Of a stretch of DNA of 64,000 nt, positions 4,345 through 32,015 are shown piece by piece. The stretch lies in contig JAUYHB010000027.1 in NCBI GenBank assembly GCA_030690305.1, forward strand, positions 79,670-143,669. The letters are read 5' to 3'. The position numbers and the translations under genes were made by a program. Position 1 is the stretch's first letter; each line of letters begins with the position of its first letter. Source of the DNA: a bacterium (GTDB lineage Bacteria > Patescibacteriota > Minisyncoccia > Phycocordibacterales > JAGLPS01). The notes below the pieces were generated by a model. It was not told where the DNA came from. It worked only from the letters and a program-made list of their open reading frames with translations, and did no database searches.

Positions 4345-6839
4345 AATTTTTTGATGACAAACGATTCAATACCTCGGTCGTCAATAATTTTGATGGCAAC
4401 TTTTTTATGTTCGCCCACCTTAAACGGCAGTGATTCAACACCAATAAACGAATCCATTACTTCTTCGTTCACCGCGCCGTTCAAAGTTTTCGCAAGACCA
4501 GTCCAATCCCGCTTTTCATCTTTCATTGGGAAGAAAACTTGAACGGGTAAAATACTTTGCTCGTCGTAATCAGTATCCAACATCCACATCGCAATCCGAG
4601 TGGTATCGCCGGAATCAATCTCGCCCGTAACGGGATTATAGTAATCAAATCCATTAACGCGCACCTTGTATGTGCCGCCTTTGCTTTTAACAACCTCAAT
4701 GTCCGGCTGGCCAATAAGCCAGTAGCTTTGGCTGGACGAACGCTTCTTGCGTAAATCCGAAGTTAGAAGATCAACGCTCATCTGCGCTTTGAGTATGGAA
4801 ACACCCGGCCATTTCATCTCATCAATATCCTTTGACGCTTCGGGGTCAAAATGAAATGCCGCAAAGATGACGAGTTCCGGTTTATCGGCTAAAATGCGCG
4901 CCTCGTTGATAGCTTCCTCTACTTGGCGTTGCTCAAGCGGGCCGTAATCCGGGCCGAAACTGATAACCGCTTTTTTCTGTTTTCCTTTCTCGTCTAAAAT
5001 TTCACCTTCGGCGTGTAAATACTTTGTCCCCGCCATCGGTTCAATACGAGAAAAATTGATGATACTCCCGCCCACGGCTCGGATACCGGACGACTTCAAC
5101 TCGTCGCGCCATACTGCCTGATTCGCTGTTTCTCCGGTGCGCGCAATGTCTTCGCCGGTTGTAGTAACTTTCTGCTGACTTCCGTCAAATGGTTTAACAC
5201 GAAGTCCGGGAACAGCTTCAACTGTAAATGGACTGGCTACACGGACTTTACTTGTGTCAATTACTGGCTGGTCATAAAGAATTTCCTGTTTGTCTAATTC
5301 ATTGTTTGCGATTGATTTAATTGTGATATGAGGAACTTTCCTATATACAAAACCGCTTCCTACTCCTTCGGTTGGATGAGCAAGTTGATAGTGGTCAAAA
5401 TAAGAAGTCATAAGTCGTTGTTTCGCAAGCGTAATAGCAACGCGCGAGGTGTCGCAAGTTATCCAGCGACGACCCCACTGTTCGGCTACATGAGCAGTAG
5501 TGCCGCTTCCGCATGTTGGGTCAAACACTATATCGCTTGGATCAGTAGTCATCAAAATACATCTTTTCAAAATCTCTTTTGATGTTTGAACGGCATAAAT
5601 CTTTTTTAGTTCGCCAACTGTATCAGTCCAAACATTAGTATATTTACTAACTGGAAAATCATCAAAATAATTTACAAATCTTAATGTGTTGCCGAACGCT
5701 ACCAACCGCTTTGCGGCCTCCAATTTTTTCATACCTTCAAGATTGGTCTTCCAACTCCGATTTCTTCCGGGCTTAAAGGTTCTTCCTTCAAATTCATAAT
5801 CAAAAACACAACTTGCTGTTAAACCTGAAGAAACAAGGTCTGCCGAGCTAAATATTTTACTGCCTTTAGGGAGAAGTGAAGGGTTATGTATTTCCTCGGC
5901 CGATAAACTGCGTCGTTCTCCACTTGGAAGGTGAGCATAACCAAACGCTCCTTCGGTTGAATCTTTCTCTTTAAACAGTTGGCGATATTTAATTTTATTT
6001 CTATCCTTCGCATACCAAAGCAGATAGTTAGCAATACCAGTTAGTCCTTTACTTCCAAGTCCACTTGTTGTTCTAAAAGTAATAAGAGAAAAAAAGTTTT
6101 GACTACCGAATACTTCATCAAGTAATTCTCTGACATGGTGGATGTTTTCGTCTCCAATTTGGACAAAAATTGAACCGGAATCGCTTAACAACTCACGAGC
6201 GAGAAGGAAACGATCTTTCAAATAAGAAAGATAAGAGTGTATACCCAACTCCCATGTATCACGAAACGCTTTAATGGTTTCCGGCTCGGATGGTAAATCC
6301 TCATCTCTGTCCTTAACATCTTTACGATTAACGAACGGCTGAAAATTTGAGTTGTATGTTATACCGAAGGGAGGGTCTACATAAATCATCTGAACTTCGC
6401 CAGCCATACCCTCTTTTTGTAGCAAGCTATTCATCACAAGGAGCGAATCACCAGCGATAAGACGGTTCGTCCAATCTTGCGCGTGATGATAAAACTCAAA
6501 CGCCTTACCAATCGTGAGTTTTTTCTCAAAAGCGTCAAAGAGTGTCGCCTGTTGATTGAGTTCTTCTTCTTTCAAAAATGATTTTACAATACGCATAGGA
6601 TCAATGCGCTCGTGAATATGTAAACTCAAATTGCGGACATTGACTTCGTTGCCTTCTTGTTTACCAGCCCAAGAGAGATACGGATCAATATGCGGATCGT
6701 GCGCGTATTTTGTAATGCCATTCAACTTGTCGGTTTGTGATGACACAAGACCGACCGGCGGATTATTCTTTCGCTTTTTATCCGCGTGTGAATATGCCTC
6801 AACTGATATTCTTTTCTTTTTTGATGCTTTGCGTGGCAT
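4341..6839 (-). CDS. mod: Type III R-M Mod subunit, N6-adenine DNA methyltransferase
   Basis: 832-aa ORF with motif IV IYVDPPFGITYN (DPPF) and AdoMet motif I VFDPTCGSGTTAHVAEQ. It sits immediately upstream of and overlaps res. Confidence 0.8.
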   Translation of the reverse strand: MPRKASKKKRISVEAYSHADKKRKNNPPVGLVSSQTDKLNGITKYAHDPHIDPYLSWAGKQEGNEVNVRNLSLHIHERIDPMRIVKSFLKEEELNQQATLFDAFEKKLTIGKAFEFYHHAQDWTNRLIAGDSLLVMNSLLQKEGMAGEVQMIYVDPPFGITYNSNFQPFVNRKDVKDRDEDLPSEPETIKAFRDTWELGIHSYLSYLKDRFLLARELLSDSGSIFVQIGDENIHHVRELLDEVFGSQNFFSLITFRTTSGLGSKGLTGIANYLLWYAKDRNKIKYRQLFKEKDSTEGAFGYAHLPSGERRSLSAEEIHNPSLLPKGSKIFSSADLVSSGLTASCVFDYEFEGRTFKPGRNRSWKTNLEGMKKLEAAKRLVAFGNTLRFVNYFDDFPVSKYTNVWTDTVGELKKIYAVQTSKEILKRCILMTTDPSDIVFDPTCGSGTTAHVAEQWGRRWITCDTSRVAITLAKQRLMTSYFDHYQLAHPTEGVGSGFVYRKVPHITIKSIANNELDKQEILYDQPVIDTSKVRVASPFTVEAVPGLRVKPFDGSQQKVTTTGEDIARTGETANQAVWRDELKSSGIRAVGGSIINFSRIEPMAGTKYLHAEGEILDEKGKQKKAVISFGPDYGPLEQRQVEEAINEARILADKPELVIFAAFHFDPEASKDIDEMKWPGVSILKAQMSVDLLTSDLRKKRSSSQSYWLIGQPDIEVVKSKGGTYKVRVNGFDYYNPVTGEIDSGDTTRIAMWMLDTDYDEQSILPVQVFFPMKDEKRDWTGLAKTLNGAVNEEVMDSFIGVESLPFKVGEHKKVAIKIIDDRGIESFVIKKL

Positions 6840-7159: not shown

Positions 7160-7778
<619 letters not shown>

Positions 7779-14331: not shown

Positions 14332-15075
14332 TTAAAACATCCCTCCCACTTGGACTGCCAATCTGTCCGCTATGGCCGCGCAGGCTTTCGCTCTGTCGAT
14401 GTTCGTCTGCTTTGCCGTGACCACGATGCGCGTCCTATATTCCTGATGTCCTGAATCAACTTGCCTCTCCGACGTAAAGCTGGTCGCGGAGCCGTAGGTG
14501 GTATTGGTCTTCATCATGCCTTTGACTCCCCCCTCGACTCTTTCTTTGATTTGAATGTCTACCGCGCCCAAATAGGTATCGACATGGATCATCGACCCCA
14601 CGACTCCGCCGATGACAGACCCCACAAGGGTGCCTGCCACTCCTCCGGCAACGGGGCCTCTCCAGCCGCCTCTGACATTGGAACCCGCCAACCCGCCGCC
14701 AAAGCCTCCGACAAGCATGCCCTCGGCGGTCAAGTCCTGCTTTTGCGCGCCCATATAAAGGAGATTGGCCTGAAGGATATGACCTGCTTTGCTCACATCG
14801 TTAGTTACGACATACCCTCGGGAGGAAATTTTGCTTTTTAACAGCTCCGCGAAGTCTATCTCCTGAAAATCCGAGGTATTGGTGACCCGGACAAAAATGC
14901 TGTTGTTCTTGGCGAGACTTTCGGGATCGATGAATATCGTCTCCGACATTTGTGCGGAGAGGGTCATCTGCCGGTTGCTTATCGCTTCTATGGTCCCGGC
15001 GCATCCGGAAAAAGTAACTGCTACAGAGACCAATAAAAAACATACGACTGCGAATCTCGGAATTTTGTAATACAT
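14332..15075 (-). CDS. traT: TraT complement-resistance / surface-exclusion lipoprotein homologue
   Basis: 247 aa with lipobox FSGC. It aligns by eye with F-plasmid TraT: QMSETIFIDPES vs QMSETIWLEP, ILQANLLYMGAQKQDL vs IQANVLKADKMDL, and the Gly-zipper segment YRTRIVVTAKQTNI vs YQTRVVSNANKVNL. Confidence 0.65.
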   Translation of the reverse strand: MYYKIPRFAVVCFLLVSVAVTFSGCAGTIEAISNRQMTLSAQMSETIFIDPESLAKNNSIFVRVTNTSDFQEIDFAELLKSKISSRGYVVTNDVSKAGHILQANLLYMGAQKQDLTAEGMLVGGFGGGLAGSNVRGGWRGPVAGGVAGTLVGSVIGGVVGSMIHVDTYLGAVDIQIKERVEGGVKGMMKTNTTYGSATSFTSERQVDSGHQEYRTRIVVTAKQTNIDRAKACAAIADRLAVQVGGMF

Positions 15076-19564: not shown

Positions 19565-22500
19565 TTAACCCCTGCTTGCTAAAAATTCCTTATTAACATC
19601 TAAATGTTCCTTTATTGATTGTTCAACACTGTCCGCGCATCTTTTCAATAAATTACTTAGAGCTCCCAGAGAAGTTTTTTTCTGCATCTCTTCGTAAATT
19701 CGCTTTTTTTCCAAAAGGGCTGGTGGAGCTTGACCACCAGAAGAAGACCATCCACCCTCAGGATATGTTTTCGAAAATAACAAAGAACGAATTGTCTTTA
19801 AATTATCACTCTTGATTCCTTCTTCAGAGATTCTTAAGAATAAATCAACAGTTTCACCGTTTAGTGGGAGGTATTGAGCACAAATCAATATCTCGTTAAT
19901 TTGCTTCTTTTGAACCAGTTCATTAATATATTCTGTTATATAAAGCTGATTTGTTTTATTGTTACGGGCGAATAAAATTGGCTTTAGTATTTTCTGAACG
20001 TCATAATATTCCACTCCTTCAGAATAAATATTATGCCATTCCAGAGATTGGGAAAGAAATTTCCTATAATCCTCGTAGGATTGAATTGATCCGCTCAAAT
20101 GTTTTATTCCATCATAAGGTATCGCCTCGAATTCGGCTCGTTTGTTATGCGTCTTAGATTCCTTAAGGCGATAATCAATGAAAGCAATTAATTCATCCAC
20201 ATTTCCAATACAAAATTCCACAATTTCCTGATCGTGCCATTCCAGCTCAGGCCTATCTTTTATTAAATCGTAGAGGGCTTTGACTAACTTGTTGATATCT
20301 TTGTGCTTCTTAAAATCATCCTTTAGTGAGTGGGTAAGAAATGAAACGTTGTCAACAAACTGATTATCGATATTTTTAATTTCATTTAACGCCAATAATA
20401 ATAATCCCATCAAGTCATCAACATTCTTATTTTCCTTGAAAACGAAATAAAGGTTTCGCACTACTTTGCTTATTATTTTGTCATTACCGCACCCAATGAG
20501 TTTTCTTGACCAATCCGATCGTTCTCTTGGTTGCTTTATTGTAATCAAATGTAACAATGTGCTGATTCGCTCATCTGTCGCCTTATTAATATCTGACAGT
20601 ATCTCGTTAGCTAACCGTTGCAGATGATTAGGATCAAGGTTCGTTAATGCACCGTCAATTTCCATTTTGAAATAATCGGGTATTAATTGCCATAATGTAG
20701 TGTTATCCCGAATTTCTCTAAAAGCGTCTGAATTCAACTCAACCCAACAATAAATAAAAATGGGATATAGATGTGAATTTAAAGGTTCAATCTTCTTGGC
20801 AAAACGATTTACAAATTTTGCTATCAACTCGGCAGAGCTATATTCCTGATTTAATTGTTGGACAGGCCTTGAAAAATCATGTGATTTCAAATACCATTTT
20901 TTTGACATTACATTCTCAACTAACCACGGCCATTTATTAGCTTGGGGAGCATCCTTTGAAACTTCTTCAAAACTCTGGACAATATCTAACCGAGAGGAAA
21001 AATATCGAAAAAGCTCGTATTCAGGACTTCGAGGAATACTTTTTAATAACTCAGTAATCTTTTCTATTCCCGGAGCATCTTGGGCCCACCAGTGCAAGAA
21101 CAAATCCTCTATGTCGCTCAACAGACGAAAATCTGTATTAGGATGAATCAAGCGGCCAATGTCATCAATAATTTTAATTTTTTCTTGAACAAATCTTTCG
21201 GCTAAAGGTAGCTGAGAAGGTGAGACATGGCCCATCCTCGTTTTGCCAATGTCGCTTACAACGTCAATTGCGCAAAGCTGGTACTCAATATTGGCATGTG
21301 TAAGCAATTTATCTAATAACGCCATTGCTGCATCTCTCATTTGTAATACTTTAGGATTATTGGGCAGAGGTCTTTCACCAAATTCCATTTTATCCAAATA
21401 AGAGCGGCTATATTCGTGGGTTGCTGCTAGAACTTCTGACAATGCTGATTTGACCATGTCCGCTCTATTTTTATTCGGCTCATCCAACCACTTCTCCATT
21501 AGATTCAGCATCTCAACAATAGAATCAACATCATTTCTTAAAGGAGAAACGCAATCTTTAATTAAAGTTAACGGTTTATAGTTGTCATATGTTCCCTTCA
21601 TTTCTAATGAATATAATCTTTCAATTAAGCATAAAATTTCATTTCGGTATTTGTGGCTTCTGATTAAACCATCAATGGCCGGGCCATAATCATCTGTAGA
21701 AAGCAATACAACGCGATAATCATCGGGATAAAGGAAGCTAGTTTCTTGGGGAGGGGGAAAGTCAAAATATGTATTTATTAAATCAAGACAACCTTTGGGT
21801 ATAAATTCGACAACATTTTTTAACCATTCCAGTCTTTCTCTTCTTTCAGTCCCCGAAGTATCTTTAGCCTTGTCGATCCACTCGTTTATAAATTCCTCTA
21901 ACATAGCTGAAATAATGTTAGCTTGACCATATTTAAATGTGGCTCCCAAATTAACAAAGATATTTTTCGAAAACAGAGGCATCCATTGCAAAACTAGGTT
22001 TTTCAAGTACTCCTTACTTAACTGTTCTAGCTTATACAATAAGTAAACATCGCCTCGCATGTCAGGTGAAAATCGAATTGCGCGGCCGACTTGCCGTAAT
22101 ATATTAGACTGAACCAGCCGATCAATGGCCTTTTTTATAAGATCACTACTTTTATTTAACTGTTTAGCTATTTCGTCAATCGTTCCCTGATTATCCTTAT
22201 TAAAAGGCACAATACATGCTAGATTTAAAAGAAGTTCATCCGCGCCGTCTTGAAAAACATCAGCAAGTGACTTCTTTGCATCAACAATAATATCTTCAAT
22301 TATTTCAGCTTTAATTTTAGAAAAGTCTTTAATCCCATCCCCCCTAATACGCTTTCCGATAAGAACAATAAAGTATGGATTAGGAAAGTCATGCACAATG
22401 ATTTCCTCATCGTTAACTCTATCTTTATTTGCACAGGCACGAAGCAGTTTCAATAAATCATCCTTAGGCCACTCATTAATTTTCAGAACAGTGGTAAACC

Positions 22501-23416
22501 CGCTCGCCCTAAACTCTTGTATTCTATCTTGCAAAATATAAATTCCAGATGTCCTTAAGCTAAGCACAACTTTGATATCCACACCGCTTTTAGTTAAAAA
22601 GGCCAAAAGAGGATTTAAAGTATTTAAATCACGGTCTGCATCGTCAAGAATTAATAAGTATTTCTGTTTAGGGTCAATTTCTTCTTGTATGGCAGCTTCA
22701 AAAGATCGATAACCCGTTTTAAGCATCCATGGCTGCCGAGTGGGGTCATACTCATATGCCAAAGTTGCTATTTCTCGCAGCAAATGCGATTTGCCAAAGC
22801 CGCCGGGTGCGTGAACAACAAATAATTGGTGCTTATCTGAAGCCATAAACTTTTGAAATTCTTCTATATAAGATTTAAATGCAGTGATCTCATGGGCAGG
22901 GACATCAATTAACTGCTTCTCTAAATCATCAAAATATAGACTGGCGGGGACTAATAACGGATGCTGTGGATCACCGAAATAAGAATTTCTAAGAAAGGGC
23001 TGTCGCTCAATTCTAATTTTTAGATTTTCTCTATGCCAAACATGTAGTGATTTTATTTCCTTGGGTTTTAAATTTTCCAAAGCCTTGACTTGGTCAACCC
23101 TTAATTCTGCAGTGGTAGCAATGCGAAGGTGCTCAACCTTGTTTTTAATTGCCTTGTCGATTTCCTTACTAATTTCCGACTTTAAATGACCCTCTGCTTC
23201 ACTAAAATTCTTTTGCGTCCATTTTGATTGAATGGAAAATAAACCCTCTAAATTCTCGCTAGGGTAAAACCCTTCATAATAACCATCCCAGCCGTTATCA
23301 AAACCAATGTAAGGACTCGAAGGAATAAAAGCTGGCGAGTTACATTCAATTGCGAATAAGTGATTAACCAATCTTTGAAAATCTTTTTCGTTAGTTATTT
23401 TTCCCAGATCTACCAT
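19565..23416 (-). CDS. Giant STAND-type P-loop NTPase with an N-terminal Mrr-like restriction-endonuclease motif and a ~900-aa C-terminal helical region (Avs/AVAST-like antiviral NTPase candidate)
   Basis: 1283 aa. N-terminus GFDNGWDGYYEG...GLFSIQSKW matches the Mrr_cat DxGxDG...QxK pattern. Walker A HAPGGFGKSHLL. Walker B YLLILDDADRD (hhhhDD). The remainder is long and alpha-helical. Confidence 0.5.
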   Translation of the reverse strand: MVDLGKITNEKDFQRLVNHLFAIECNSPAFIPSSPYIGFDNGWDGYYEGFYPSENLEGLFSIQSKWTQKNFSEAEGHLKSEISKEIDKAIKNKVEHLRIATTAELRVDQVKALENLKPKEIKSLHVWHRENLKIRIERQPFLRNSYFGDPQHPLLVPASLYFDDLEKQLIDVPAHEITAFKSYIEEFQKFMASDKHQLFVVHAPGGFGKSHLLREIATLAYEYDPTRQPWMLKTGYRSFEAAIQEEIDPKQKYLLILDDADRDLNTLNPLLAFLTKSGVDIKVVLSLRTSGIYILQDRIQEFRASGFTTVLKINEWPKDDLLKLLRACANKDRVNDEEIIVHDFPNPYFIVLIGKRIRGDGIKDFSKIKAEIIEDIIVDAKKSLADVFQDGADELLLNLACIVPFNKDNQGTIDEIAKQLNKSSDLIKKAIDRLVQSNILRQVGRAIRFSPDMRGDVYLLYKLEQLSKEYLKNLVLQWMPLFSKNIFVNLGATFKYGQANIISAMLEEFINEWIDKAKDTSGTERRERLEWLKNVVEFIPKGCLDLINTYFDFPPPQETSFLYPDDYRVVLLSTDDYGPAIDGLIRSHKYRNEILCLIERLYSLEMKGTYDNYKPLTLIKDCVSPLRNDVDSIVEMLNLMEKWLDEPNKNRADMVKSALSEVLAATHEYSRSYLDKMEFGERPLPNNPKVLQMRDAAMALLDKLLTHANIEYQLCAIDVVSDIGKTRMGHVSPSQLPLAERFVQEKIKIIDDIGRLIHPNTDFRLLSDIEDLFLHWWAQDAPGIEKITELLKSIPRSPEYELFRYFSSRLDIVQSFEEVSKDAPQANKWPWLVENVMSKKWYLKSHDFSRPVQQLNQEYSSAELIAKFVNRFAKKIEPLNSHLYPIFIYCWVELNSDAFREIRDNTTLWQLIPDYFKMEIDGALTNLDPNHLQRLANEILSDINKATDERISTLLHLITIKQPRERSDWSRKLIGCGNDKIISKVVRNLYFVFKENKNVDDLMGLLLLALNEIKNIDNQFVDNVSFLTHSLKDDFKKHKDINKLVKALYDLIKDRPELEWHDQEIVEFCIGNVDELIAFIDYRLKESKTHNKRAEFEAIPYDGIKHLSGSIQSYEDYRKFLSQSLEWHNIYSEGVEYYDVQKILKPILFARNNKTNQLYITEYINELVQKKQINEILICAQYLPLNGETVDLFLRISEEGIKSDNLKTIRSLLFSKTYPEGGWSSSGGQAPPALLEKKRIYEEMQKKTSLGALSNLLKRCADSVEQSIKEHLDVNKEFLASRG

Positions 23417-23485: not shown

Positions 23486-25432
23486 TCACACCATTTTGAC
23501 ACCAAAACTTTCAAGCCATCGCTGGATTACGCCTAAATGCTTTTCCCCCAGCCCTCGGTTACCTGTTTCCCACCTTGCCAACGTCCCCGGATCAACGCCT
23601 AAACGCCTCGCCAGTTGTGCTTGGGACAGGCCTAGGGTCTTCCGACAATGTATGATTTGCTCTGTGAGTGTCTGGGCCTCTGGCAATGGATTGTAGCCTA
23701 AGAATTCAATGATCTTGGGAATAAAGCGGATTTCGGGTTCGGTAAGCCCTAGTTCCCAGTGGCAGATGGTCATTTCATCGGCGCCAATTTGTGCGGCCGC
23801 CTGTTTCTGGAACAGCCCAAGGTCTAACCTGCGCTTCTTAACATGGTCTCCGATGGTGGTAAGGCTCTTGGGATAGGCCGGATCAGGCGGCTTTTGGGCG
23901 GTACGCCTGATATGGCAAAAAGGCAACGCAAGGATGTGGTTCTGAAGCTCTTTGGCCACTTTCTTAGTGGAGGGCAAATAAAAGAGGTTGACTTCCACTT
24001 CATCCTTCCCAATGACAATGCTTTCCGTAATGTTCTCTATAATCTTGCGTTTCTCCGCAAATTCAAGCCGGGACCAGTTCCCGTACAACCCCTTTCCCTC
24101 AGCAAGGATTTCATCCGATGAGAGGTAGTTAATCTTCAAGAAGTCGATTTCGGCCTGAACGCGCGGCATCTCATCTTCCAGTTGCTTTTCTTTCTCCTCC
24201 AAGGGTAAGTAGCGCTTGCCGAACCCTTCCTTGGTGATCTGTTTGGCCATATACAGGTCATATGTTTCATCCATTTCCTTTTTAATCTTCTGATACTCCC
24301 TCTCCAAGGCCTGCATCAGTTCCGCTTTGTCCTTGATGGTGTCTTCCGCCCCGTGAAGGTACTTCTCTATATCCTCAGGGGACATGAAGAACCCTTTCAG
24401 TTCCTCAAGGTAGATTTCCTCAAGGTCGGAAATAGTGATTTTGTTTCGGCACTTGCGGCATACGTATTTGTTGGGGTAATTGGAAAGGACGTACATCTGA
24501 CCCTTGCAGGCGCAGACCGCATATCCGGCAAACAACTGTACGGCCGTTCTCGATACCCGTTTTCGTGACTTTCCCTGTTCCTCAAGAATGTGATTGCATC
24601 GCTGCCACAGTTCGGGAGAAATGATGGGCTCGACTTCCGTGAAAACCCAGTCTTTCTCCGGCTTTACTTCCCAATGCCTCTTTCTATCAAGCGTTTTACT
24701 GTAATTGGCGCGGTGCAGTCCTTTAGCAGTGGAGTCTCTCAAGAGCCGGTCAACGGTCGTGTCCGAGAATTTTGAATTGTTCCTCGTTCGATAACCGGCT
24801 TCGTTCAAAAGACGCGCAACAACCTTCTTTCGCCTGTGTTCCAAGAAAAGCTCGTACATCTGTTTTCGAATCGGCACCTCGTTCGGAGCTGGGATAAGTT
24901 TCTTGTCCTTCCACTGATAGCCAAAAGGCGCCGCTCCCCCCAAGGGTTTCCCCAATTTTGCCCTGATGGGCACGGAGGCAGCGACGCGTTCCGCAATTTC
25001 ATCTCGTTCCCATTGGGCAAGCGCACTAATCATGGTATACAGGAGGCGTCCGGCGGGACTGCTTGTATCGATTGATTCTTGCAAGCTGATCAAGTCAGCA
25101 TTGCACTCTCTAAAGATTTCGGCGAATTCCAAAAGTTCTTTGGTGTTCCGTGCAAGCCGAGCGAGTTTGGAAAAAATAAGGCCGGTGATCGTTCCCTTGC
25201 GAACGTCGCTTAACATTCTCTGAGTTTCTGGATGATTGAAGACGGTCTTCCCGCTCACGGCTTCAAGATGATACACTGTTTTTACGTCCCACCCCTTCGA
25301 TTCGGCGTAATAGCTGGCTCGCTTTTCATGGTGCTCTGGGCTCTCTCCTTTTGCCTGATCTTCGGTCGATACTCTGATCCATATGCCGACTTGCTTTTTT
25401 AATCCATTTCCCTCATGTACATTCTTAGGCAT
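23486..25432 (-). CDS. Large serine recombinase (resolvase/invertase catalytic domain plus recombinase domain) with two extra C-terminal XRE-like HTH domains
   Basis: 648 aa. N-terminus VGIWIRVSTEDQAKGES carries the catalytic Ser. C-terminal HTH-like segments are LTTIGDHVKKRRLDLGLFQKQAAAQIG and TLGLSQAQLARRLGVDPGTLARWETG. Confidence 0.7.
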   Translation of the reverse strand: MPKNVHEGNGLKKQVGIWIRVSTEDQAKGESPEHHEKRASYYAESKGWDVKTVYHLEAVSGKTVFNHPETQRMLSDVRKGTITGLIFSKLARLARNTKELLEFAEIFRECNADLISLQESIDTSSPAGRLLYTMISALAQWERDEIAERVAASVPIRAKLGKPLGGAAPFGYQWKDKKLIPAPNEVPIRKQMYELFLEHRRKKVVARLLNEAGYRTRNNSKFSDTTVDRLLRDSTAKGLHRANYSKTLDRKRHWEVKPEKDWVFTEVEPIISPELWQRCNHILEEQGKSRKRVSRTAVQLFAGYAVCACKGQMYVLSNYPNKYVCRKCRNKITISDLEEIYLEELKGFFMSPEDIEKYLHGAEDTIKDKAELMQALEREYQKIKKEMDETYDLYMAKQITKEGFGKRYLPLEEKEKQLEDEMPRVQAEIDFLKINYLSSDEILAEGKGLYGNWSRLEFAEKRKIIENITESIVIGKDEVEVNLFYLPSTKKVAKELQNHILALPFCHIRRTAQKPPDPAYPKSLTTIGDHVKKRRLDLGLFQKQAAAQIGADEMTICHWELGLTEPEIRFIPKIIEFLGYNPLPEAQTLTEQIIHCRKTLGLSQAQLARRLGVDPGTLARWETGNRGLGEKHLGVIQRWLESFGVKMV

Positions 25433-25442
25433 GGCGCCCTCC

Positions 25443-28400
25443 TCACTTCTTCAGCTCTTTGAGTTTCTTTAAAGAATTGGCAACGACCCTCACAATCGCC
25501 TGCTCGCGGATTTCTGCGCTGTCAGTCGGGCGATAATTTGTCTTTAATTTATATCCCTTCACCGTCTTTTCGGTGCTCATTGATTTCATCGCGATTTCCT
25601 GCATGAAGGGTAAGAGTTGTTCGGGAGAAAAGAAACACACCCGCTCTCTATCCTCTTCGGTAACTTCCAACGCGATAGCATTTCTTAACTGTTCGAGTTT
25701 TCTGGGATCAGCGGATATTACCGTAACATATTGGAATCCTGCGGACAAACACTTTTTAACGTTGGCCGCCTCCTGATCCACCGGCGTCGTTACGCAAATC
25801 TGGCAGGCGATGGAACACTCCCCTTTTTGAAGCGCGACATCGACGCTTCCTTTGCCGTCGAGAATGGATTTCTCGATCACGGAAAGATACCCCAAATCAT
25901 CCGCCTGTTTTTTTATGAGAAACTGAAGGTACTTATGCTCCCTGCCTCCTCTCCCCGGCTGAACTGGTATGGGAGATCTCTTTCTCTCGGCAATCGCATG
26001 GATCGGCGCGGATTCTCTTGCAGACGGAATGTCTTCTTTTAGAACTCTGACTTCTTCCTTCTTCGGTTGAACAATTGACGGCTTTTCAACTTCAAATTCC
26101 ATTCTCGGTTCAATTGGCAAGTTCTCTCGTCGAATGCCGTATTTCTCTCTCGAAAGAGCGATGATTCGCCGCCGCTTCTCCTCGGCAATCGTCTTGTCAA
26201 CCCTCGGGAGAAGTGCAGTCGTCAGATTGAAATCAAAGTCGGCCCGCTCGATTCGGCAGACAGCCTCTCCGATTCCCAAGCTCTGCATGTCATCCGACTT
26301 GAAAAAAGAAAAACCGTTCTCCAGTTTTCTCGCGTCTTGGTCTCCCAAACGAAAACAAATGCGGGTACACGCGTTCGCAAGCACCGCGCTCGCGACATCC
26401 GGGTCGCGCGCTTCCAACTGCCGTAATTCCTGATGCGCAAGCGTCAGCCCTAAACGATATTTTCGGGCGCCGGAGAGAATAGATGCCATAGAAGGCGTGG
26501 AGAAATTTTGGAATTCATCGATATACAGCCAGAAGTCCCGCCGGTCTTCTTCTCTTGTTTCTTGTCTCCCCATGACGAGCTGATGAAATTTGGAAACGAG
26601 CAGACTGCCGAAAAGATAGGCGTTCTCCTCTCCGATGGCTCCCTGCGAAAGTCTGGCGAGAAGAATCTTTCCGCCGTTCATGATTTCAGCAAAGTTGAGA
26701 CGGTTTTCTTTTTGGGAAACCATATTGCGGATAGGCTTCGGACGAAGAAAAGCGTCAAGCCGGGTAATAATCGGGGCTTGGGGTCTTCCGGACAAAAGCG
26801 GATAAGCACGGGTCCAATAATAGACAACCTCGGGGTCGGTGACTGTTTTCAAAAATTCCGTTCTGAAGGACGGCTCGATGAGAAACCTGCGCAAATCGGC
26901 TAATGTGCCGCCGCGTGTGCTTTCGAGAAATGCGATCACCGCATTCGAGAATACGGATGTCATCTGGTCTCCCCATGCTGTCGAAAGCCTGCGGAAAACG
27001 GCGACGAGATCGGAGGCAAGCAAATTCTTCTCGAGCTCGGAATGCGCGGACAAAATGTTAAAGCCGATTGCGTATTCTTCATCCGATGGGTCGAGGACGA
27101 TGACGTCCTCGAAGCGTTCTTCCGGAATGTGTTCCAATATGGTGTTCACTAAGTCACCATGCGGATCAAGAACGGCAATTCCTTCCCCATTGCGGATATC
27201 CTGCAAAATGAGATTAAGCAGCAACGTGCTCTTGCCGGTACCACTCGCGCCGATTACATGCGTATGACGCACTCTTTGGTTCGAGTTTAAGGTAACCATT
27301 CGAGTCTCGCCGAGATGAACGTTTTCCCCGAGAACCAAGTTATGGTTTAACGCCGTCTTGGGCGCGGCTTTGGTCTTCTTTGCCCTCCGGTTAAGTTTTT
27401 CCGTTTTCACTGAATCCGAGGGCAGATGGACAATGGAAATTAGTTCATCACTATTGAGAATCATGCCGCTTCTTCTCGATTTCCTTGCGATCAAATCATT
27501 CTCGCGGTCTTCTAAACTATACCGTTCATCGTCTTCAAGCGGAATCAATTCGTTGCCGGTGGGATTTGAAAAGACCGACAGACTTCCCGCAAGCGCCTTC
27601 ACGATCTCTCTTGACCTATCCATTCGCGTGCTTCGCGCGGCAATGCGCACAACTGCGGCGTATAAAGGCTTTTCGACTTTTGTCTTGGCTTGAGCGGCAA
27701 AATCCGGGGCGTTCATAAAGAATGGCGTGCCGTCGGGACAGATGACTGCTTGCAAAATGCTTTCAGCCCACGGCGCGCAAACCGGCTCGAAAATCACCTG
27801 AAATACAGCGGCTTCTCCATCCCGCATCTCCGACAATGCTCCCATGATTCCGATAAATGGATCGGGGTCTAACTTACGTGAAGTTGCAAGCGGCAACATG
27901 AACTCCTGAGCAAGTCCGAAATCAACTATGGCAGTCTCTCCATCGCCTTTGACGCCTCTCCATGAATTTCTAAAGAAATCGGAACGGATAGACATGGAGG
28001 CTTCCGGGAAATGCGCGGAGAGCTGGGCCCTTACCTGACCCAGATCACCATCCGAAACGACGATTTGAACCGTGATCGAATCGGACAAACCGATGATTTC
28101 GAAAACAAGCGGGTGCGCGCAATACGACAGGCTCAACAAAAATTGTTCAAAGACTTCTTTGGAAACTTGGGATGCGGCGGGCAGGGTTATCTGAATCTCA
28201 TGAGGCAAAGTATATGACGCCCTGTTGGATTCGATATCAAGCGGTTCCGCCTCTTCGGGAGCATCGCTCGCCGTATTCTTTCTTCGCGAGACAAGCAGAC
28301 CAAACACTTGATCTGTCACGCTACTTAAAAAAGTCTTCCTGCGTCCGTCATCGATGGAGGGTTGGGTTGAGTAATATCCGGGAAACGATACGAACGGAGG

Positions 28401-28517
28401 CTCAGGAAGAACATGAAAATCAAAAGATTGTATTCCTCTGCCCCCATATTCCCATTCGTAAAACCGGCGGGTGGCTTTGACGATTTGCGATTCGTATATA
28501 TCTTCTGCCAATGCCAT
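25443..28517 (-). CDS. FtsK/HerA-superfamily P-loop ATPase (DUF87/VirB4/VirD4-like core) with a ~400-aa N-terminal and ~240-aa C-terminal domain of unknown function
   Basis: 1024 aa. Walker A HVIGASGTGKSTLLLNL, then VLDPHGD, Walker B LYIDEFQNF, and ARKYRLGLTLAHQELRQL (RKYG...Q..QL motif). No N-terminal TM helix. Separated by 10 nt from the recombinase gene. Confidence 0.5.
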   Translation of the reverse strand: MALAEDIYESQIVKATRRFYEWEYGGRGIQSFDFHVLPEPPFVSFPGYYSTQPSIDDGRRKTFLSSVTDQVFGLLVSRRKNTASDAPEEAEPLDIESNRASYTLPHEIQITLPAASQVSKEVFEQFLLSLSYCAHPLVFEIIGLSDSITVQIVVSDGDLGQVRAQLSAHFPEASMSIRSDFFRNSWRGVKGDGETAIVDFGLAQEFMLPLATSRKLDPDPFIGIMGALSEMRDGEAAVFQVIFEPVCAPWAESILQAVICPDGTPFFMNAPDFAAQAKTKVEKPLYAAVVRIAARSTRMDRSREIVKALAGSLSVFSNPTGNELIPLEDDERYSLEDRENDLIARKSRRSGMILNSDELISIVHLPSDSVKTEKLNRRAKKTKAAPKTALNHNLVLGENVHLGETRMVTLNSNQRVRHTHVIGASGTGKSTLLLNLILQDIRNGEGIAVLDPHGDLVNTILEHIPEERFEDVIVLDPSDEEYAIGFNILSAHSELEKNLLASDLVAVFRRLSTAWGDQMTSVFSNAVIAFLESTRGGTLADLRRFLIEPSFRTEFLKTVTDPEVVYYWTRAYPLLSGRPQAPIITRLDAFLRPKPIRNMVSQKENRLNFAEIMNGGKILLARLSQGAIGEENAYLFGSLLVSKFHQLVMGRQETREEDRRDFWLYIDEFQNFSTPSMASILSGARKYRLGLTLAHQELRQLEARDPDVASAVLANACTRICFRLGDQDARKLENGFSFFKSDDMQSLGIGEAVCRIERADFDFNLTTALLPRVDKTIAEEKRRRIIALSREKYGIRRENLPIEPRMEFEVEKPSIVQPKKEEVRVLKEDIPSARESAPIHAIAERKRSPIPVQPGRGGREHKYLQFLIKKQADDLGYLSVIEKSILDGKGSVDVALQKGECSIACQICVTTPVDQEAANVKKCLSAGFQYVTVISADPRKLEQLRNAIALEVTEEDRERVCFFSPEQLLPFMQEIAMKSMSTEKTVKGYKLKTNYRPTDSAEIREQAIVRVVANSLKKLKELKK

Positions 28518-28537: not shown

Positions 28538-29167
28538 TCATTTCCACAGGGACTTCATAATCGGTTTGCGTTGATCTTCGGTAAGTCTGATTCCCTTAGC
28601 TTTCGTCACTTCGTCTATGACTTCCAACACTGCTGAATGAACGGCATCGGCGTAGCTATTTATGGCGTCATAGCGAAAAAAAGTAACGGGCCTAAAAAAA
28701 TAATAGTAGACGGCACCAAGGAGAAGAATTTTGAGGACGATAGCATCAAAGTCCGTCAATCCTTTGCTCGCCATGCTTCTCGAAAACCAGACAAGCGAGC
28801 CGATTACTCCGGCAAGAACCACCGATCCCCAGAAGAATCCTAACGATGAAATAAACACATTGAAGAAAAGAACCACGATGACAAGCAGGACAAGCATTTG
28901 AAGAGGAGTAAGACGCGACGATATGTCCCCCAATCTCGATGAAAAGAAGAAGCCAGTCCCGAACGGTGCGGCGCATATGTAGCCGATAAGCCGCTCCCGG
29001 CTTAAACGCAGATACTCACGATTACTGGAAAGCAGTCCCCCTTCTTTCCATTCAACACGTGATATTTCCAAGTTGGGTATTTGACGCCGGGCAATGGCTT
29101 TTTCGAGGAGATCGTAAAATTCTTGAGGGGAAGTATTGAAATTTTCTATAAGGTGATGCCAACTCAA
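28538..29167 (-). CDS. Hypothetical membrane protein (209 aa)
   Basis: Central hydrophobic helices LVLLVIVVLFFNVFISSLGFFWGSVVLAGVIGSLVWF. It ends 20 nt upstream of the ATPase gene. Confidence 0.4.
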   Translation of the reverse strand: MSWHHLIENFNTSPQEFYDLLEKAIARRQIPNLEISRVEWKEGGLLSSNREYLRLSRERLIGYICAAPFGTGFFFSSRLGDISSRLTPLQMLVLLVIVVLFFNVFISSLGFFWGSVVLAGVIGSLVWFSRSMASKGLTDFDAIVLKILLLGAVYYYFFRPVTFFRYDAINSYADAVHSAVLEVIDEVTKAKGIRLTEDQRKPIMKSLWK

Positions 29168-29518
29168 AATTACATCTATTTTCTCAGCCCGTTGGATTAT
29201 AAGCCCCTTTTTTGAAATGATAACAATTTAAAAATTTATTATACCATTTCTAAGCTAATGAGTTATAAAAAATGATTGGACGGGTGCATCCCCCATACTT
29301 AATAAAGTTTCATGCCTCTTAGTTGGCAAAGTTTTAAGAATAGCTCAGGCATACCAACATTGCAGTGACACGTCTATTTGATTATCGTTTTACATCTAAA
29401 ATTTCGTACTAAAAATTGATTCAAAACCACTTCCCTTTCCTGTATAATTATATTTAAGTTGGTCTTCAATATTTATCTTGTTAGCACATATCCCTATAGT
29501 TTTCCAAGGAGGACAAAA

Positions 29519-30016
29519 ATGAAGGAAGAGGGTTTTTTGTTAACACTTGCTCAGGTTGGAATAGCGTTTGCTGGGTTTAGTGGGCTGATTACTGTATTCA
29601 GGAAATCTGAAAAACCATGGACACTTATTGAAATCGCTGCTGTAAAACTGATTTTGCAGCATACACTTGGACTATTTTGTTTTTCTCTTCTCCCTGTTTT
29701 TATTTTTTATTGGCATGGATCAGAGAAACAAATTTGGAGGATCTCAAGTATAGCGCTGGCTGGATTTTTTTGGGTAGTATTTGTATATAATTGGCAGCAA
29801 CTAAGACGACTAACTAAAGATGGTCACGTTCCGGCACACCCTAAAATGCTAAAACGTATATTTTTTCCCAAAACAGCTGCTGCGGGCATACTTCAAATTT
29901 TTAACATCTTTTTTGACCAATTTCTTCTATATTCCATTGGCCTAGCATGTCTTATTTTTTCGGCAGTAATACAATTTTGGGTTTCTACTATGCGGCACAC
30001 GAGCAACGAGCAATAA
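29519..30016 (+). CDS. Hypothetical multi-pass membrane protein
   Basis: Start chosen at the ATG with SD CCAAGGAGGacaaaaATG; the ORF track begins at 29459. Several hydrophobic segments. Confidence 0.4.
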   Translation: MKEEGFLLTLAQVGIAFAGFSGLITVFRKSEKPWTLIEIAAVKLILQHTLGLFCFSLLPVFIFYWHGSEKQIWRISSIALAGFFWVVFVYNWQQLRRLTKDGHVPAHPKMLKRIFFPKTAAAGILQIFNIFFDQFLLYSIGLACLIFSAVIQFWVSTMRHTSNEQ

Positions 30017-30021
30017 AAAAT

Positions 30022-30056
30022 AACTGCTTACTATGAAGCAGTTATTTTTAAAATTT
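30022..30056 (+). terminator. Rho-independent terminator
   Basis: AACTGCTT-actatg-AAGCAGTT followed by ATTTTTAAAATTT, 6 nt after the stop. Confidence 0.5.
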
Positions 30057-30063
30057 CGGCTAC

Positions 30064-30168
30064 TTAATCGTAGTAGTTTTGACCTGTGTAAAGCATATAA
30101 ATGCCCGATCCAATTTCAAATACGATAAAGACGCCACAAATTATCTTCACTATCAAGGGTAATTCCAT
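30064..30168 (-). CDS. 34-aa hydrophobic peptide (type I toxin-like or leader peptide candidate)
   Basis: Manual translation gives MELPLIVKIICGVFIVFEIGSGIYMLYTGQNYYD. Strong SD GGAGGAG 4 nt upstream of the ATG. Below the ORF-track length cutoff. Confidence 0.35.
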   Translation of the reverse strand: MELPLIVKIICGVFIVFEIGSGIYMLYTGQNYYD

Positions 30169-30174
30169 TACACT

Positions 30175-30242
30175 CCTCCTCTTTGGCAGTTACAGCCCAC
30201 ATGCGTGATTGCATGTGCAGCTTTTTTCTGCCAAAGAGGAGG
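30175..30242 (-). promoter_or_regulatory. Perfect 15-bp stem (CCTCCTCTTTGGCAG / CTGCCAAAGAGGAGG) enclosing an inner 7-bp hairpin plus T-tract. On the minus-strand transcript it sequesters the SD of the small peptide ORF.
   Basis: Arms at 30175-30189 and 30228-30242. Inner CACATGC-gtgatt-GCATGTG followed by CAGCTTTTTTC (reads as a plus-strand terminator). The SD GAGGAGG of the peptide ORF is part of the stem. Confidence 0.45.
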
Positions 30243-30272
30243 GCCTTCCCAAGAACACAAAATCCTTTCTTA

Positions 30273-30301
30273 ATCAAAGCATACTATCAAAAATTTGTCA
30301 A
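30273..30301 (-). promoter_or_regulatory. Sigma70-like promoter for the small peptide transcript
   Basis: Minus strand TTGACA (30296-30301), 17-nt spacer, TTTGAT (30273-30278). Confidence 0.35.
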
Positions 30302-30396
30302 TACCACGAGGAGGATCGTTCTTAGAAAATAAAATCCAGCCATATAGAGTCCCCATTTATGTTTAGATAAATTTTTAAGAGATTAAAGAATTGTGT

Positions 30397-30430
30397 CCCC
30401 TTCGTAAATGCAGTAGCATTTACGAAGGGG
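30397..30430. repeat. Perfect 15-bp palindromic hairpin CCCCTTCGTAAATGC-agta-GCATTTACGAAGGGG
   Basis: Seen directly. No adjacent convincing ORF. Confidence 0.4.
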
Positions 30431-31364
30431 AAGAAAACCCAAGGGGTTCTCCAAGGGGAAATTTTCAACGCATTTTTTGGCGCGTCCAATTATCCACTAT
30501 TCAATATGGTTCGTCATTGAGCCAGATACCAAGAGAAAGGTTTGCGACTTGTGGAAAAATAGGCTGTACCTATTTTCAATGTGCCCCTCTGCGAGGAATA
30601 AAACATCCCGCTATTTGTCACATTGCAAACGCCTAACTCTCAAAATCTCTCCGGCTCACTGATATAACTCTGCAGTGTATTTGTCCGAAAAACACAGATG
30701 GAGGCTTCTATCTATAGTTTGATCATTCCAGCCCCCTTGCCATTGCCTGCCGGTAAATGCAAAGAATAACTTCTTCGCCGGCCTTTCGGCCGCACGCAAT
30801 GGCAGCGACCTAGAATTCGATGATCTCTAGTTCATCGTCTTTACTTTCCGTGCCAAACGACTTCTCCTCTAACGAAACAATTTCAAATTCTTCATCCGGC
30901 ATAGAAGTAAAGCGGTTGGTTATTAATCTCGACCTTTCCCCCTCTTCTTATGCAAGGGAGTCTACAGATGAGAGCTGGGGTTTAAATTGATAATAAGTGG
31001 GTTCCCTTGTTTCTCTCCTCTGTAGGCTTCCATGCACAAAAGCCCAACTGATCTAAATTCAGCTGGGTTTGGAAAATTTTTAACGTCTCTAAAGTCTTAT
31101 TGTGCGACGTACCAGAGTTATCCACAGTTGTCACATTCGGGGCTACTGTCAAGCACTTCCCCTGAAGTTCATCCGCCATTTCTCAAATCCGACGATATGC
31201 GCGAAAAATAAAAAATTAATAATAATTTCTTTTTCTGAAGAAAAAATTTCAGAAGTTTTTAAAATTTTTGAGAGAAAGAAGAGGGAGTATAAAAACAAAT
31301 GTGTATTTCCCGCCACCTTCCCCCTCCCCCGACAAGGATACCGGGGAATTGTCTGTACAAAAAA

Positions 31365-31394
31365 ACCGCTACGTTAATTTATAAACGTAGCGGT
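31365..31394 (-). terminator. Rho-independent terminator for 31401-32015
   Basis: ACCGCTACGTT-aatttata-AACGTAGCGGT flanked by A7/T7 runs. Confidence 0.5.
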
Positions 31395-31400
31395 TAAAAC

Positions 31401-32015
31401 TTAAGAACGAAGAGAATTCAGAAACCTTTCCTGCATCGACTTTTCATAGTGACTATCCGCTTCCTGGCCCGCACTGATATTTTCCTGAAACACCTTTCCC
31501 GTCCTCAGGTCATCAAGGGCATATGCAACCATTTCTTCAATGTTGCCTTTAGTCACGAGCGGAAGAGACTGCCCCTTTCCCTTTTCGGAATAATGCAGTC
31601 GATTGACGACATACTGCAATCCAAAAGAAAATGCTTTTCCGAGCCCGGAGTATGAAGGGACATAGAGACTTACCCCTTCCGACCTGTTTGAAAGAACACC
31701 TGTGTTTGAAATGCCGTCATAGTGGATTTTGAACTGATAAAATCCCACGGTTAAAACCGAGAACAAACTACGGCAGTGGTTGAAAGCCCTATCTTCCGAG
31801 GGGGTGGGAATGACGCGCAGGAGATACCCCCTGTCTTTCATAAGGTTTCCTGACAGTACCGAAGAATCACCCAAGATTTTCGGGTGACGAAACAGTTTAA
31901 TACATATGTCGCCAGGACATCCCGTACCCGGTTCGGCGATGAGGATGTATCCTCTTTTGAAAATAAGCTTTGTTGCTATGCTTCCTACATTATTTTTGGT
32001 AATGATGGTAAACAT
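31401..32015 (-). CDS. Hypothetical protein (204 aa), no recognised domain
   Basis: ORF with its own downstream terminator. Confidence 0.35.
   Translation of the reverse strand: MFTIITKNNVGSIATKLIFKRGYILIAEPGTGCPGDICIKLFRHPKILGDSSVLSGNLMKDRGYLLRVIPTPSEDRAFNHCRSLFSVLTVGFYQFKIHYDGISNTGVLSNRSEGVSLYVPSYSGLGKAFSFGLQYVVNRLHYSEKGKGQSLPLVTKGNIEEMVAYALDDLRTGKVFQENISAGQEADSHYEKSMQERFLNSLRS

Follow-up and report, generated by a model that had tools for sequence, protein, structure and literature searches.

A small hydrophobic peptide gene with a buried Shine-Dalgarno sequence, a plausible orphan type-I-toxin-like module in the cargo of an integrative element

Sequence elements and predicted RNA structure indicate that the minus strand at positions 30064 to 30301 of the 64,000-nucleotide stretch of DNA analyzed here (the window) most probably carries a genuine gene for a small peptide, silent in translation as type I toxin mRNAs are. 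The features that an earlier note on this DNA had named are all present and far from chance. The 34-amino-acid (34-aa) open reading frame (ORF) at the center of the unit is probably a real small gene, locked through its Shine-Dalgarno (SD) sequence, and the peptide unit as a whole is a plausible orphan type-I-toxin-like module. That the locus is a type-I-toxin-like module carried as part of the variable cargo of an integrative element is the reading that we develop below, and we give it a probability of roughly 0.4. The case for it is built on the sequence elements, their improbability, their predicted fold and their location in the cargo.

The predicted peptide unit and its leader hairpin

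Read on the minus strand, the unit runs in the order TTGACA, TTTGAT, 5' arm of the outer stem, A6 run, inner hairpin, 3' arm with the SD, ATG, and ORF. Its features are as follows.

30273 to 30301, minus strand: putative promoter, with the -35 element TTGACA at 30301-30296, a 17-nt spacer and the -10 element TTTGAT at 30278-30273 (read from sequence)
30228 to 30242, minus strand: 5' arm of the outer stem, which is the anti-SD, CCTCCTCTTTGGCAG (inverted-repeat scan and folds)
30198 to 30217, both strands: inner hairpin CACATGC(G)...(T)GCATGTG, 7 to 8 bp (8 pairs, 4 of them G-C), inside the outer stem
30175 to 30189, minus strand: 3' arm of the outer stem, CTGCCAAAGAGGAGG, which holds the SD (inverted-repeat scan and folds)
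30064 to 30168, minus strand: ORF of 34 codons, MELPLIVKIICGVFIVFEIGSGIYMLYTGQNYYD, with ATG at 30168-30166, TAA at 30066-30064 and one predicted transmembrane helix
30016 to 30049, both strands: bidirectional intrinsic terminator, AAAAATAACTGCTT, 6 nt, AAGCAGTTATTTTT, 14 bp, 100% complementary

As the earlier note had described, a perfect 15-bp stem carries the SD GAGGAGG in its 3' arm; the two arms are 15 nt long, 100% complementary and 38 nt apart. Across the 64 kb of the window, inverted repeats of 14 nt or more that lie within 80 nt number eight, this stem included, and the remainder are for the most part ordinary terminators; by our own estimate, the chance expectation for a perfect 15-bp pair is ~0.005. 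The SD makes up the last seven bases of the 3' arm (30181-30175) and lies entirely within the helix, with the ATG at 30168, 6 nt past it. Folding the leader bore out the proposed occlusion: in silico, every base of the SD is paired in both the MFE and the centroid structures, and the hairpin alone reaches -46.5 kcal/mol versus -21.9 +/- 3.2 kcal/mol for shuffled sequences (z -7.63), none of the 200 shuffles being as stable. When all SD-like motifs with a start codon behind them were scanned, both in the window and in six related loci, this leader ranked first in stability among 490 SD-start pairs.

Sequestration of the SD is a major hallmark of type I toxin-antitoxin loci, and the leader shows in silico the SD/anti-SD pairing that characterizes a nontranslatable primary transcript (PMC6733600). 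At -46.5 kcal/mol it is far more stable than the SD-sequestering hairpins of the AapA3 study, for which energies of -21 to -29 kcal/mol are given (PMC6733600). No alternative pairing partner for the anti-SD was seen. The bases that come after the 3' arm on the sense strand are AGUGUAAUGG, and a sense-strand attenuator or terminator was dropped as a candidate function of the hairpin for want of a U-run 3' of that arm. The 15-bp outer stem belongs to no terminator; it is the inner hairpin only, and on the antisense strand, that shows the terminator-like combination of a G+C-containing hairpin with a U-run immediately behind it.

The promoter had been described as a consensus promoter. TTGACA-17-TTTGAT is indeed present with a flawless -35 element, but position 2 of the -10 element TTTGAT is not the conserved A, because of which the consensus promoter scan did not list it. 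A TG extension lies 5' of the -10 element (TG at 30281-30280, giving TGcTTTGAT), and an overlapping alternative extended -10 element, TGaTAGTAT, occupies 30289-30281 of the minus strand; together, these motifs make minus-strand transcription of the peptide unit plausible. From these signals alone, the predicted transcript would span ~255 nt, from ~30266 to ~30010 of the minus strand, and as a whole it folds at -86.5 kcal/mol (z -6.25). Type I toxin-antitoxin loci have, by definition, an mRNA of 150 to 400 nt, a usually hydrophobic peptide of 20 to 60 aa whose expression harms the host and an antisense RNA of 60 to 200 nt that base-pairs with this mRNA (PMC8594479); the predicted transcript and the small hydrophobic 34-aa product both lie within the respective ranges. 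The terminator at 30016-30049, on which the earlier note was silent, begins 14 bases past the peptide stop codon, has an A-tract and a T-tract on its flanks, and is common to the peptide unit and a convergent 165-aa gene.

The 34-aa ORF with a single transmembrane helix was confirmed at 30168 to 30064. Its best 19-residue Kyte-Doolittle window scores 2.22, which places it among the top 6 of the 276 small ORFs in the window (first-ATG ORFs of 25 to 60 aa, six frames). Six of the 276 have a strongly hydrophobic 19-residue window and six have an SD; the peptide ORF is the only one with both, where ~0.13 would be expected if the two properties were independent. The peptide has a net charge of about -2, one Lys, an acidic C terminus and no cationic tail. 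We estimate that ~13% of random 34-codon frames would stay open at this composition, and PGAP/Prodigal-type gene calls on the identical sequence, which is also found in the Logan assembly SRR13727534 (L001), omit the ORF.

The antisense strand and searches for relatives

The earlier note had also reported that the 7-bp hairpin, read on the plus strand, is followed by T6 and could terminate an antisense RNA. The hairpin and the T6 are present at 30198-30227, and the scan lists them as terminator-like. Two features of the plus strand are relevant here.

30194 to 30227, plus strand: terminator-like element, the inner hairpin with an AGC/GCU extension, then T6 (terminator scan and fold)
30115 to 30144, plus strand: best candidate antisense promoter, weak, TTCAAA-18-AATTAT, matching at 8/12 positions (read from sequence)

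On this strand the inner hairpin is followed by CAGC and then by T6 at 30222-30227, and the extra AGC/GCU pairing carries the helix right to the U-run. The segment from 30150 to 30232 (plus strand) folds at -22.8 kcal/mol (z -2.87). It is possible that the element forms the 3' end of a cis-antisense RNA, or that it stops read-through from the convergent gene. The consensus scan found no plus-strand promoter at the locus, TTCAAA-18-AATTAT being below its threshold; an RNA predicted from that candidate would be ~75 nt long and end at the T6. No trans-complementary small RNA (sRNA) segment was found nearby upstream of the unit. The sole pointer to a putative antisense antitoxin is the terminator-like hairpin with its T6; the best promoter candidate matches at 8/12. 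Of the type I toxin-antitoxin locus that the earlier note proposed, the toxin-mRNA half holds up in silico (unit size, hydrophobic peptide, sequestered SD), whereas the other half has no convincing antisense promoter and the locus matches no known family.

Searches for relatives of the peptide covered protein families, proteins and DNA. No family was matched in Pfam even at E <= 10, in NCBIfam at the default E <= 0.001 or in PADLOC at E <= 0.01, and PHROGs gave only chance-level hydrophobic matches. A phmmer search of 1.84 billion cluster representatives returned a spurious repeat protein alone; exact look-ups gave no match for the peptide, for a 185-aa form of the neighboring gene or for a 30-aa acidic ORF, and the window holds no paralogue of the peptide. 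A degenerate pattern for the peptide core FEIGSGIYM had 0 matches in viral contigs and 0 in the contigs of species-representative genomes. Its sole match in JGI metagenomes was rejected as chance, with a stop codon at the degenerate serine position. A DNA pattern for the stem had 0 matches in viral contigs. In Rfam, the locus region had no match at the gathering threshold. Relaxing the cutoff to E <= 10 brought up nothing beyond generic hairpins, such as OrzO-P on the terminator with 17.7 bits versus a gathering threshold of 60. The locus falls outside the known type I toxin families (Hok/Gef, Ldr, Fst, TisB, Ibs, ShoB, TxpA/BsrG and others) and outside the Rfam antitoxin families (Sok, IstR, OrzO, RatA, Sib, RdlD, SymR and others). 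The absence of homologues is weak evidence, because small ORFs are under-called and the DNA patterns required a conserved 9-residue core. The earlier note had suggested looking for similar loci of peptide plus hairpin; what emerged was no homologue, only an analogous hairpin ahead of a different ORF in the related element L003, which is described below.

The integrative element, its cargo slot and its relatives

The unit lies within the variable part of an integrative element, for which the following features were assigned.

23486 to 25432, left of the locus: large serine recombinase gene
25443 to 28517, left of the locus: gene for a 1024-aa DUF8128/TrwB-type ATPase
28538 to 29167, left of the locus: gene for a ~210-aa protein
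29201 to 30343, both strands: variable cargo slot (homology to relatives ends at 30344-30351 and at 29200-29249)
29519 to 30016, plus strand: convergent 165-aa gene (GenBank MDP2705517.1), with its own promoter at 29420-29448 and an SD
30344 to 31127, minus strand: conserved backbone block of ~785 nt, upstream of the peptide promoter (blastn to relatives)

The position of the unit had been given as the junction between an island and a gene-poor region, which the comparison with related sequences corrects. Coming from the chromosomal side, identity between the window and L002, a contig of a different sample, ends at 31098, and the sequence that related elements share with the window starts at 31127 and runs downwards. 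The 30 nt between these limits, CTGTGGATAACTCTGGTACGTCGCACAATA, are therefore att-core-like, and 31098-31127 looks like the att-type junction of the element; the stretch from 30344 to 31127 is its backbone block. The window has no second copy of the core and none of the L002 tail, and the cargo ends lack direct as well as terminal repeats.

The backbone block shares 96% and 86% nucleotide identity with L003, 69% with L004, 71% with L006 and 74% with L011. It contains a small acidic ORF whose frame is conserved and ends in a 16-bp terminator-like hairpin (30431-30396), the L003 copy of which was also scanned as terminator-like. The end facing the cargo reads ...ACATAAATGGGGA, and the slot extends from there to the ~210-aa gene. 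In the window, this 1.1-kb slot is taken up by just two genes, convergent with each other: the peptide unit and the 165-aa gene. The latter encodes a strongly hydrophobic orphan protein, which we read as a multi-pass membrane protein; its sole homologue is a weak match, with 43% identity across 48% of the length, and is encoded on an uninformative contig, 1.2 kb long and GC-rich, with 106 nt downstream.

We found no description of an integrative-element family with the ~785-nt block and a three-gene cassette. A blastn search of plasmids with 29400-31500 gave no match, patterns for the backbone block had 0 matches in the contigs of species-representative genomes and 0 in viral contigs, and a relative of the 1024-aa ATPase in IMG/VR is just 31% identical to it. 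In the source metagenome-assembled genome, which bears locus tags Q8O71_ and in which MDP2705515.1 and MDP2705517.1 are neighboring proteins, the host chromosomal genes are mostly without an SD. Several have TATAAT 6 to 9 nt before the ATG and look leaderless. Since the host is mostly SD-less or leaderless, a peptide gene that depends on an SD and is locked through it is foreign not only by where it lies but also by its style.

The three-gene cassette recurs in related elements. Its ATPase shares 75% amino acid identity with that of the window in L003, 74% in L006 and 64% in L004; the L011 cassette is 92% identical in nucleotides over all three genes. The cassette adjoins a comM-like gene in L003, L004 and L011. 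The slot is filled differently in each relative.

L003: small ORFs and TPR genes
L004 and L010: an NYN-domain gene
L006: a 271-aa gene
L011: IS remnants and genes of 64 aa and 540 aa

None of the five related elements has the peptide locus, not even the one with the 92% identical cassette, and an SD-burying leader or repeat is missing in L004, L006 and L011. No comparable block plus slot occurs in L009 and L010 (ATPase relatives with 55 to 58% identity) or in L007.

In L003, a parallel architecture was found. A TTGACA-17-(TGc)TAATGT motif lies ~20 nt past the end of the conserved block, a position analogous to that of the promoter in the window. The leader that follows folds at -37.6 kcal/mol (z -6.05), with CCUCUUUUUAUGGGGU pairing with ACCUUAUAAAGGAGG around an inner hairpin so that the SD is buried. 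Past this SD lie a 7-codon ORF, a 59-aa ORF with two helices, a terminator and then a 43-aa hydrophobic ORF. Multiple alignment of the two leaders revealed no clear sequence homology; from promoter to ATG the two align collinearly, outdoing 295 of 300 shuffles, and have only the spacing of motifs in common. Two of the five full-length slots compared (window, L003, L004, L006 and L011) thus have at their entry a promoter, a hairpin that pairs anti-SD with SD, small hydrophobic ORF(s) and a terminator, which speaks for a function of this pairing, and for one that concerns translation.

Interpretation, alternative explanations and known type I systems

What we infer from these elements concerns transcription, silencing, the route of activation, toxicity and an antisense RNA. 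The TTGACA/extended -10 promoter would give rise to an mRNA in which the anti-SD CCUCCUCUUUGGCAG is made ahead of the SD. On emerging, the SD would be trapped co-transcriptionally in the -46.5-kcal/mol helix by the anti-SD made earlier, and the primary transcript would therefore be translationally silent. The 34-aa peptide would be made only once the 5' arm had been removed or the helix cut or opened; candidate routes are 5' trimming (compare tisB, dinQ and zorO; PMC5066626) and RNase III cutting of the 15- to 17-bp duplex. An optional cis-antisense RNA of ~75 to 120 nt would end at the T6 (30227) in the leader loop, and its CU-rich stretch would re-block the SD of a processed mRNA. The product would be a membrane-active peptide held off by the structure of its own mRNA, plausibly in the service of element maintenance or defence.

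Several lines of evidence favor a type-I-toxin-like module. The 15-bp stem is accompanied by z scores of -7.63 for the leader fold and -6.25 for the whole unit by first rank among 490 for the leader, and by an ORF that alone among 276 combines an SD with a hydrophobic helix; the terminator follows directly past the stop codon; the antisense hairpin and its T6 lie in the leader loop; and the sizes and the occlusion of the SD match the published definition (PMC8594479, PMC6733600). Location in the cargo slot of a mobile element also fits this reading, and L003 has an analogous slot architecture (295/300 shuffles). Against it stand the lack of an acceptable antisense promoter (best 8/12, and none on the plus strand in the scan), the sense -10 element without its conserved A, and a peptide that has no homologue or paralogue, is missing from five related elements and matches no toxin family, nor does the RNA match an antitoxin family. 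The peptide is also net acidic and has no cationic tail, unlike most type I toxins, Fst with its acidic tail being an exception (PMC8309996). Moreover, the hairpin is far more stable than those of the AapA3 study, the anti-SD has no visible alternative partner, and in L003 the hairpin is immediately followed by an ORF of no more than 7 codons.

An alternative explanation for these data could be an ordinary, nontoxic small membrane protein gene with a translation-gating leader and no antitoxin RNA. The peptide might then be an accessory or regulatory subunit, for instance with the convergent 165-aa hydrophobic protein, and the hairpin a device for translational control in cis (by temperature, a helicase, a protein or an RNase signal) or an expression gate for the cargo slot. 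All of the evidence for a real ORF and an SD lock supports this explanation as well, as do the lack of an antisense promoter, a cargo of exactly two convergent genes with hydrophobic products, and the acidity of the peptide, which is atypical of type I toxins (PMC8309996); the L003 leader, which precedes a 7-codon upstream ORF (uORF) and a 59-aa two-helix ORF, looks more like a regulatory leader than like the lock of a toxin. We nevertheless find it somewhat doubtful, as a perfect helix of -46.5 kcal/mol with no visible alternative fold goes far beyond the needs of tunable control, the antisense hairpin and T6 in the loop would be left unexplained, and the leader is missing in L004, L006 and L011. 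A related proposal takes the L003 arrangement further: with a 7-codon ORF directly behind the hairpin, the hairpin could be a general expression gate and not a toxin-specific lock. The SD-burying hairpin would on that proposal be an element-encoded "locked expression port" at the cargo-slot entry of an undescribed integrative-element family, not private to one toxin gene, in a toxin or exclusion system that is locked in cis and has no antitoxin. Translation of the small membrane-active peptides (34 aa in the window, 7 plus 59 aa in L003) would await an element-specific event that opens the helix, for example excision, transfer or RNase cleavage. We rate this as quite unlikely.

Two further explanations dispense with the gene altogether or make the hairpin act as DNA. 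The nested hairpins and T6 might insulate transcription by stopping read-through of the 165-aa gene into the backbone block, with a fortuitous ORF behind a coincidental SD-like purine run and ATG. The terminator-like site on the plus strand agrees with this, as do an ORF that is conserved nowhere and is omitted by PGAP/Prodigal-type calls, and an estimated ~13% of random 34-codon frames that stay open. It is an unlikely explanation all the same: a strong bidirectional terminator already stands at 30016-30049, the outer 15-bp stem is superfluous for a terminator, a 7-nt SD at the ideal 6-nt spacing with an ATG, a hydrophobic helix and a terminator would hardly come together by chance, and L003 independently pairs an SD and ATG with an anti-SD in the same slot. 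The perfect inverted repeat could also be a DNA hairpin or cruciform used by the element as a recombination or cassette-insertion site, like integron attC; it lies ~100 nt inward from the right-hand edge of a slot that holds something different in each relative. This is highly improbable, as the other cargo boundary has no matching repeat, terminal repeats are lacking, the arms are exactly an SD/anti-SD pair followed by an ATG, and the other slot variants (L004, L006 and L011) have no such repeat.

Returning to the type-I-toxin-like module, should the peptide be toxic and be locked by the hairpin, an uncultivated bacterium would carry a type-I-like toxin module that no known family matches. 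An extreme, local lock of -46.5 kcal/mol for which no alternative fold was seen would then offer a clean model for mRNA unlocking, and the unrelated small hydrophobic ORF behind the analogous L003 hairpin hints at recurrent carriage of dangerous small genes. If the product is merely a small membrane protein with a structured leader, the locus is an ordinary unannotated small ORF. In either case it marks a cargo hotspot of an integrative-element family for which we found no description. More unusual than the peptide unit itself is its setting: the element family, the conserved ~785-nt block, the cargo hotspot and the largely leaderless-looking host.

Set beside known systems, the locus would act like the toxin half of aapA/IsoA or of the enterobacterial systems activated by 5' processing, and it is at most a putative orphan member of the type I kind, outside all known families tested. 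With the plasmid addiction module hok/sok it shares the logic of mobile-element maintenance and a folded, silent toxin mRNA, and the 7-codon uORF before the 59-aa hydrophobic ORF of L003 recalls mok/hok coupling; unlike hok/sok, it has no HOK_GEF match and no overlapping leader ORF in the window. Activation of hok proceeds by 3' processing. The mRNAs of tisB/istR-1, zorO/orzO, dinQ/agrB and shoB/ohsC, in turn, are inert at full length and translatable once their 5' part is removed (PMC5066626), and 5' processing is the most obvious unlocking for the mRNA of the window because the anti-SD is the 5' arm. However, the antitoxins of these systems are divergent, nonoverlapping sRNAs encoded 5' of the toxin (PMC8594479), whereas the window has no direct repeat or complementary segment upstream and no family match (OrzO-P, 17.7 versus 60).

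Fst, the toxin of fst/RNAII (par, pAD1), one of the Gram-positive convergent type I loci, is a 33-aa helix with an acidic C-terminal tail (PMC8309996), and its locus, too, is on mobile DNA and has a convergent toxin and partner that share a bidirectional terminator. The window differs in that its convergent partner codes for a protein of 165 aa, in place of a small RNA, and the peptide has neither a match to the Fst_toxin family of Pfam nor a PxxxG motif at the equivalent place. In the aapA/IsoA systems of Helicobacter pylori, silencing combines a long-distance 5'-3' interaction with 3' trimming, in contrast to the local and much more stable hairpin seen here; AapA termini are cationic and the peptide is acidic; the IsoA promoter is clear and none is evident here; and there is neither sequence similarity nor the presence of multiple copies. 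The likeness to aapA/IsoA lies in a single-helix peptide of ~30 aa and an SD/anti-SD-silenced primary transcript with an upstream anti-SD acting co-transcriptionally (PMC6733600, PMC5416894), and the hypothetical antisense RNA would cover the SD and the start codon, as IsoA does (PMC8594479).

A conserved block at the chromosomal edge of the element

Between the cargo slot and the chromosome lies a block shared by five related integrative elements at 69-96% nucleotide identity, a conservation higher than that of the neighboring proteins. Comparison of these elements revealed compensatory changes in its hairpins. Copies occupy positions 2074-3197 of L003, 5766-6497 of L004, 11-618 of L006, and 1315-1983 of L011, all contigs carrying related elements. 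The features in the window are as follows.

30344-31127, minus-strand orientation: conserved block, ~785 nt
30431-30396: 16-bp hairpin in which C/A changes covary with G/T
near 30790: hairpin GGCC-GAAA-GGCC, with compensatory changes
30810-30902, minus strand: 30-codon acidic open reading frame (ORF), MPDEEFEIVSLEEKSFGTESKDDELEIIEF
31067-31043: hairpin with compensatory changes
31098-31127: 30-nt att-like core, CTGTGGATAACTCTGGTACGTCGCACAATA

No Rfam family matched the block; it may represent a structured RNA, or else serve the element as an origin or a transfer region. The acidic ORF within it had no family match. Its frame is preserved in L003, L004, and L006: indel lengths are multiples of three, synonymous changes occur, and the C terminus (LEIIEF) is conserved. 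The ORF probably encodes a genuine small backbone protein of the element that has escaped annotation.

The att-like core, which contains a DnaA-box-like TGTGGATAA, is where contig L002, from another sample and representing the chromosome side, overlaps the homology to L003 and L004 on the element side. A tyrosine integrase gene lies directly past the core in L003, L004, and L011 but is absent there in the window, and no second copy of the core was found within the window.

Variable cargo and the left part of the island

Despite 92% nucleotide identity of the three-gene cassette, the cargo of the window (29201-30343) differs from that of L011 (1984-5265), which includes insertion sequence (DDE transposase) remnants and 64-aa and 540-aa genes. 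In L004 and in L010, a contig with an ATPase relative, the slot contains an NYN-domain gene. The corresponding slot of L003 holds a unit analogous to the membrane-peptide unit of the window, with the following features.

L003 3218-3640: promoter-like TTGACA-17-TAATGT, predicted hairpin burying the Shine-Dalgarno sequence (SD; -37.6 kcal/mol), 7-codon upstream ORF (MFLKRKS), 59-aa ORF with two helices and no SD of its own, and terminator
L003 3738-3869: additional hydrophobic ORF, 43 aa

The slot is a hotspot for variable cargo, possibly with a role in defense or addiction.

Further left, the window contains the following.

1651-4344: ResIII/TnsA-like gene (restriction-modification-like)
4341-6839: N6_N4 methylase (restriction-modification-like)
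7384-7689, minus strand: group II intron RNA domains (Rfam RF02001, 140 bits; RF01998, 73 bits)
14332-15075: TraT-like lipoprotein
19565-23416, minus strand: STAND-type NTPase, 1283 aa, next after the recombinase
23486-25432, minus strand: serine recombinase, 648 aa, C-terminal Xre-type HTH

The intron domains lie within the island, close to the restriction-modification-like and TraT-like genes. Because the recombinase is longer than in relatives (506-525 aa) and the NTPase replaces the comM-like gene adjoining it in L003, L004, and L011, this part of the island is arranged differently from those elements.

Translation signals of host and island

Most chromosomal genes in 32000-64000 (minus-strand examples start at 44613, 45633, 46859, and 58693) lack an SD, and several carry TATAAT or TATACT 6-9 nt 5' of the ATG, which suggests that leaderless mRNAs are widespread in this uncultivated host. 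In contrast, several island genes have strong SDs.
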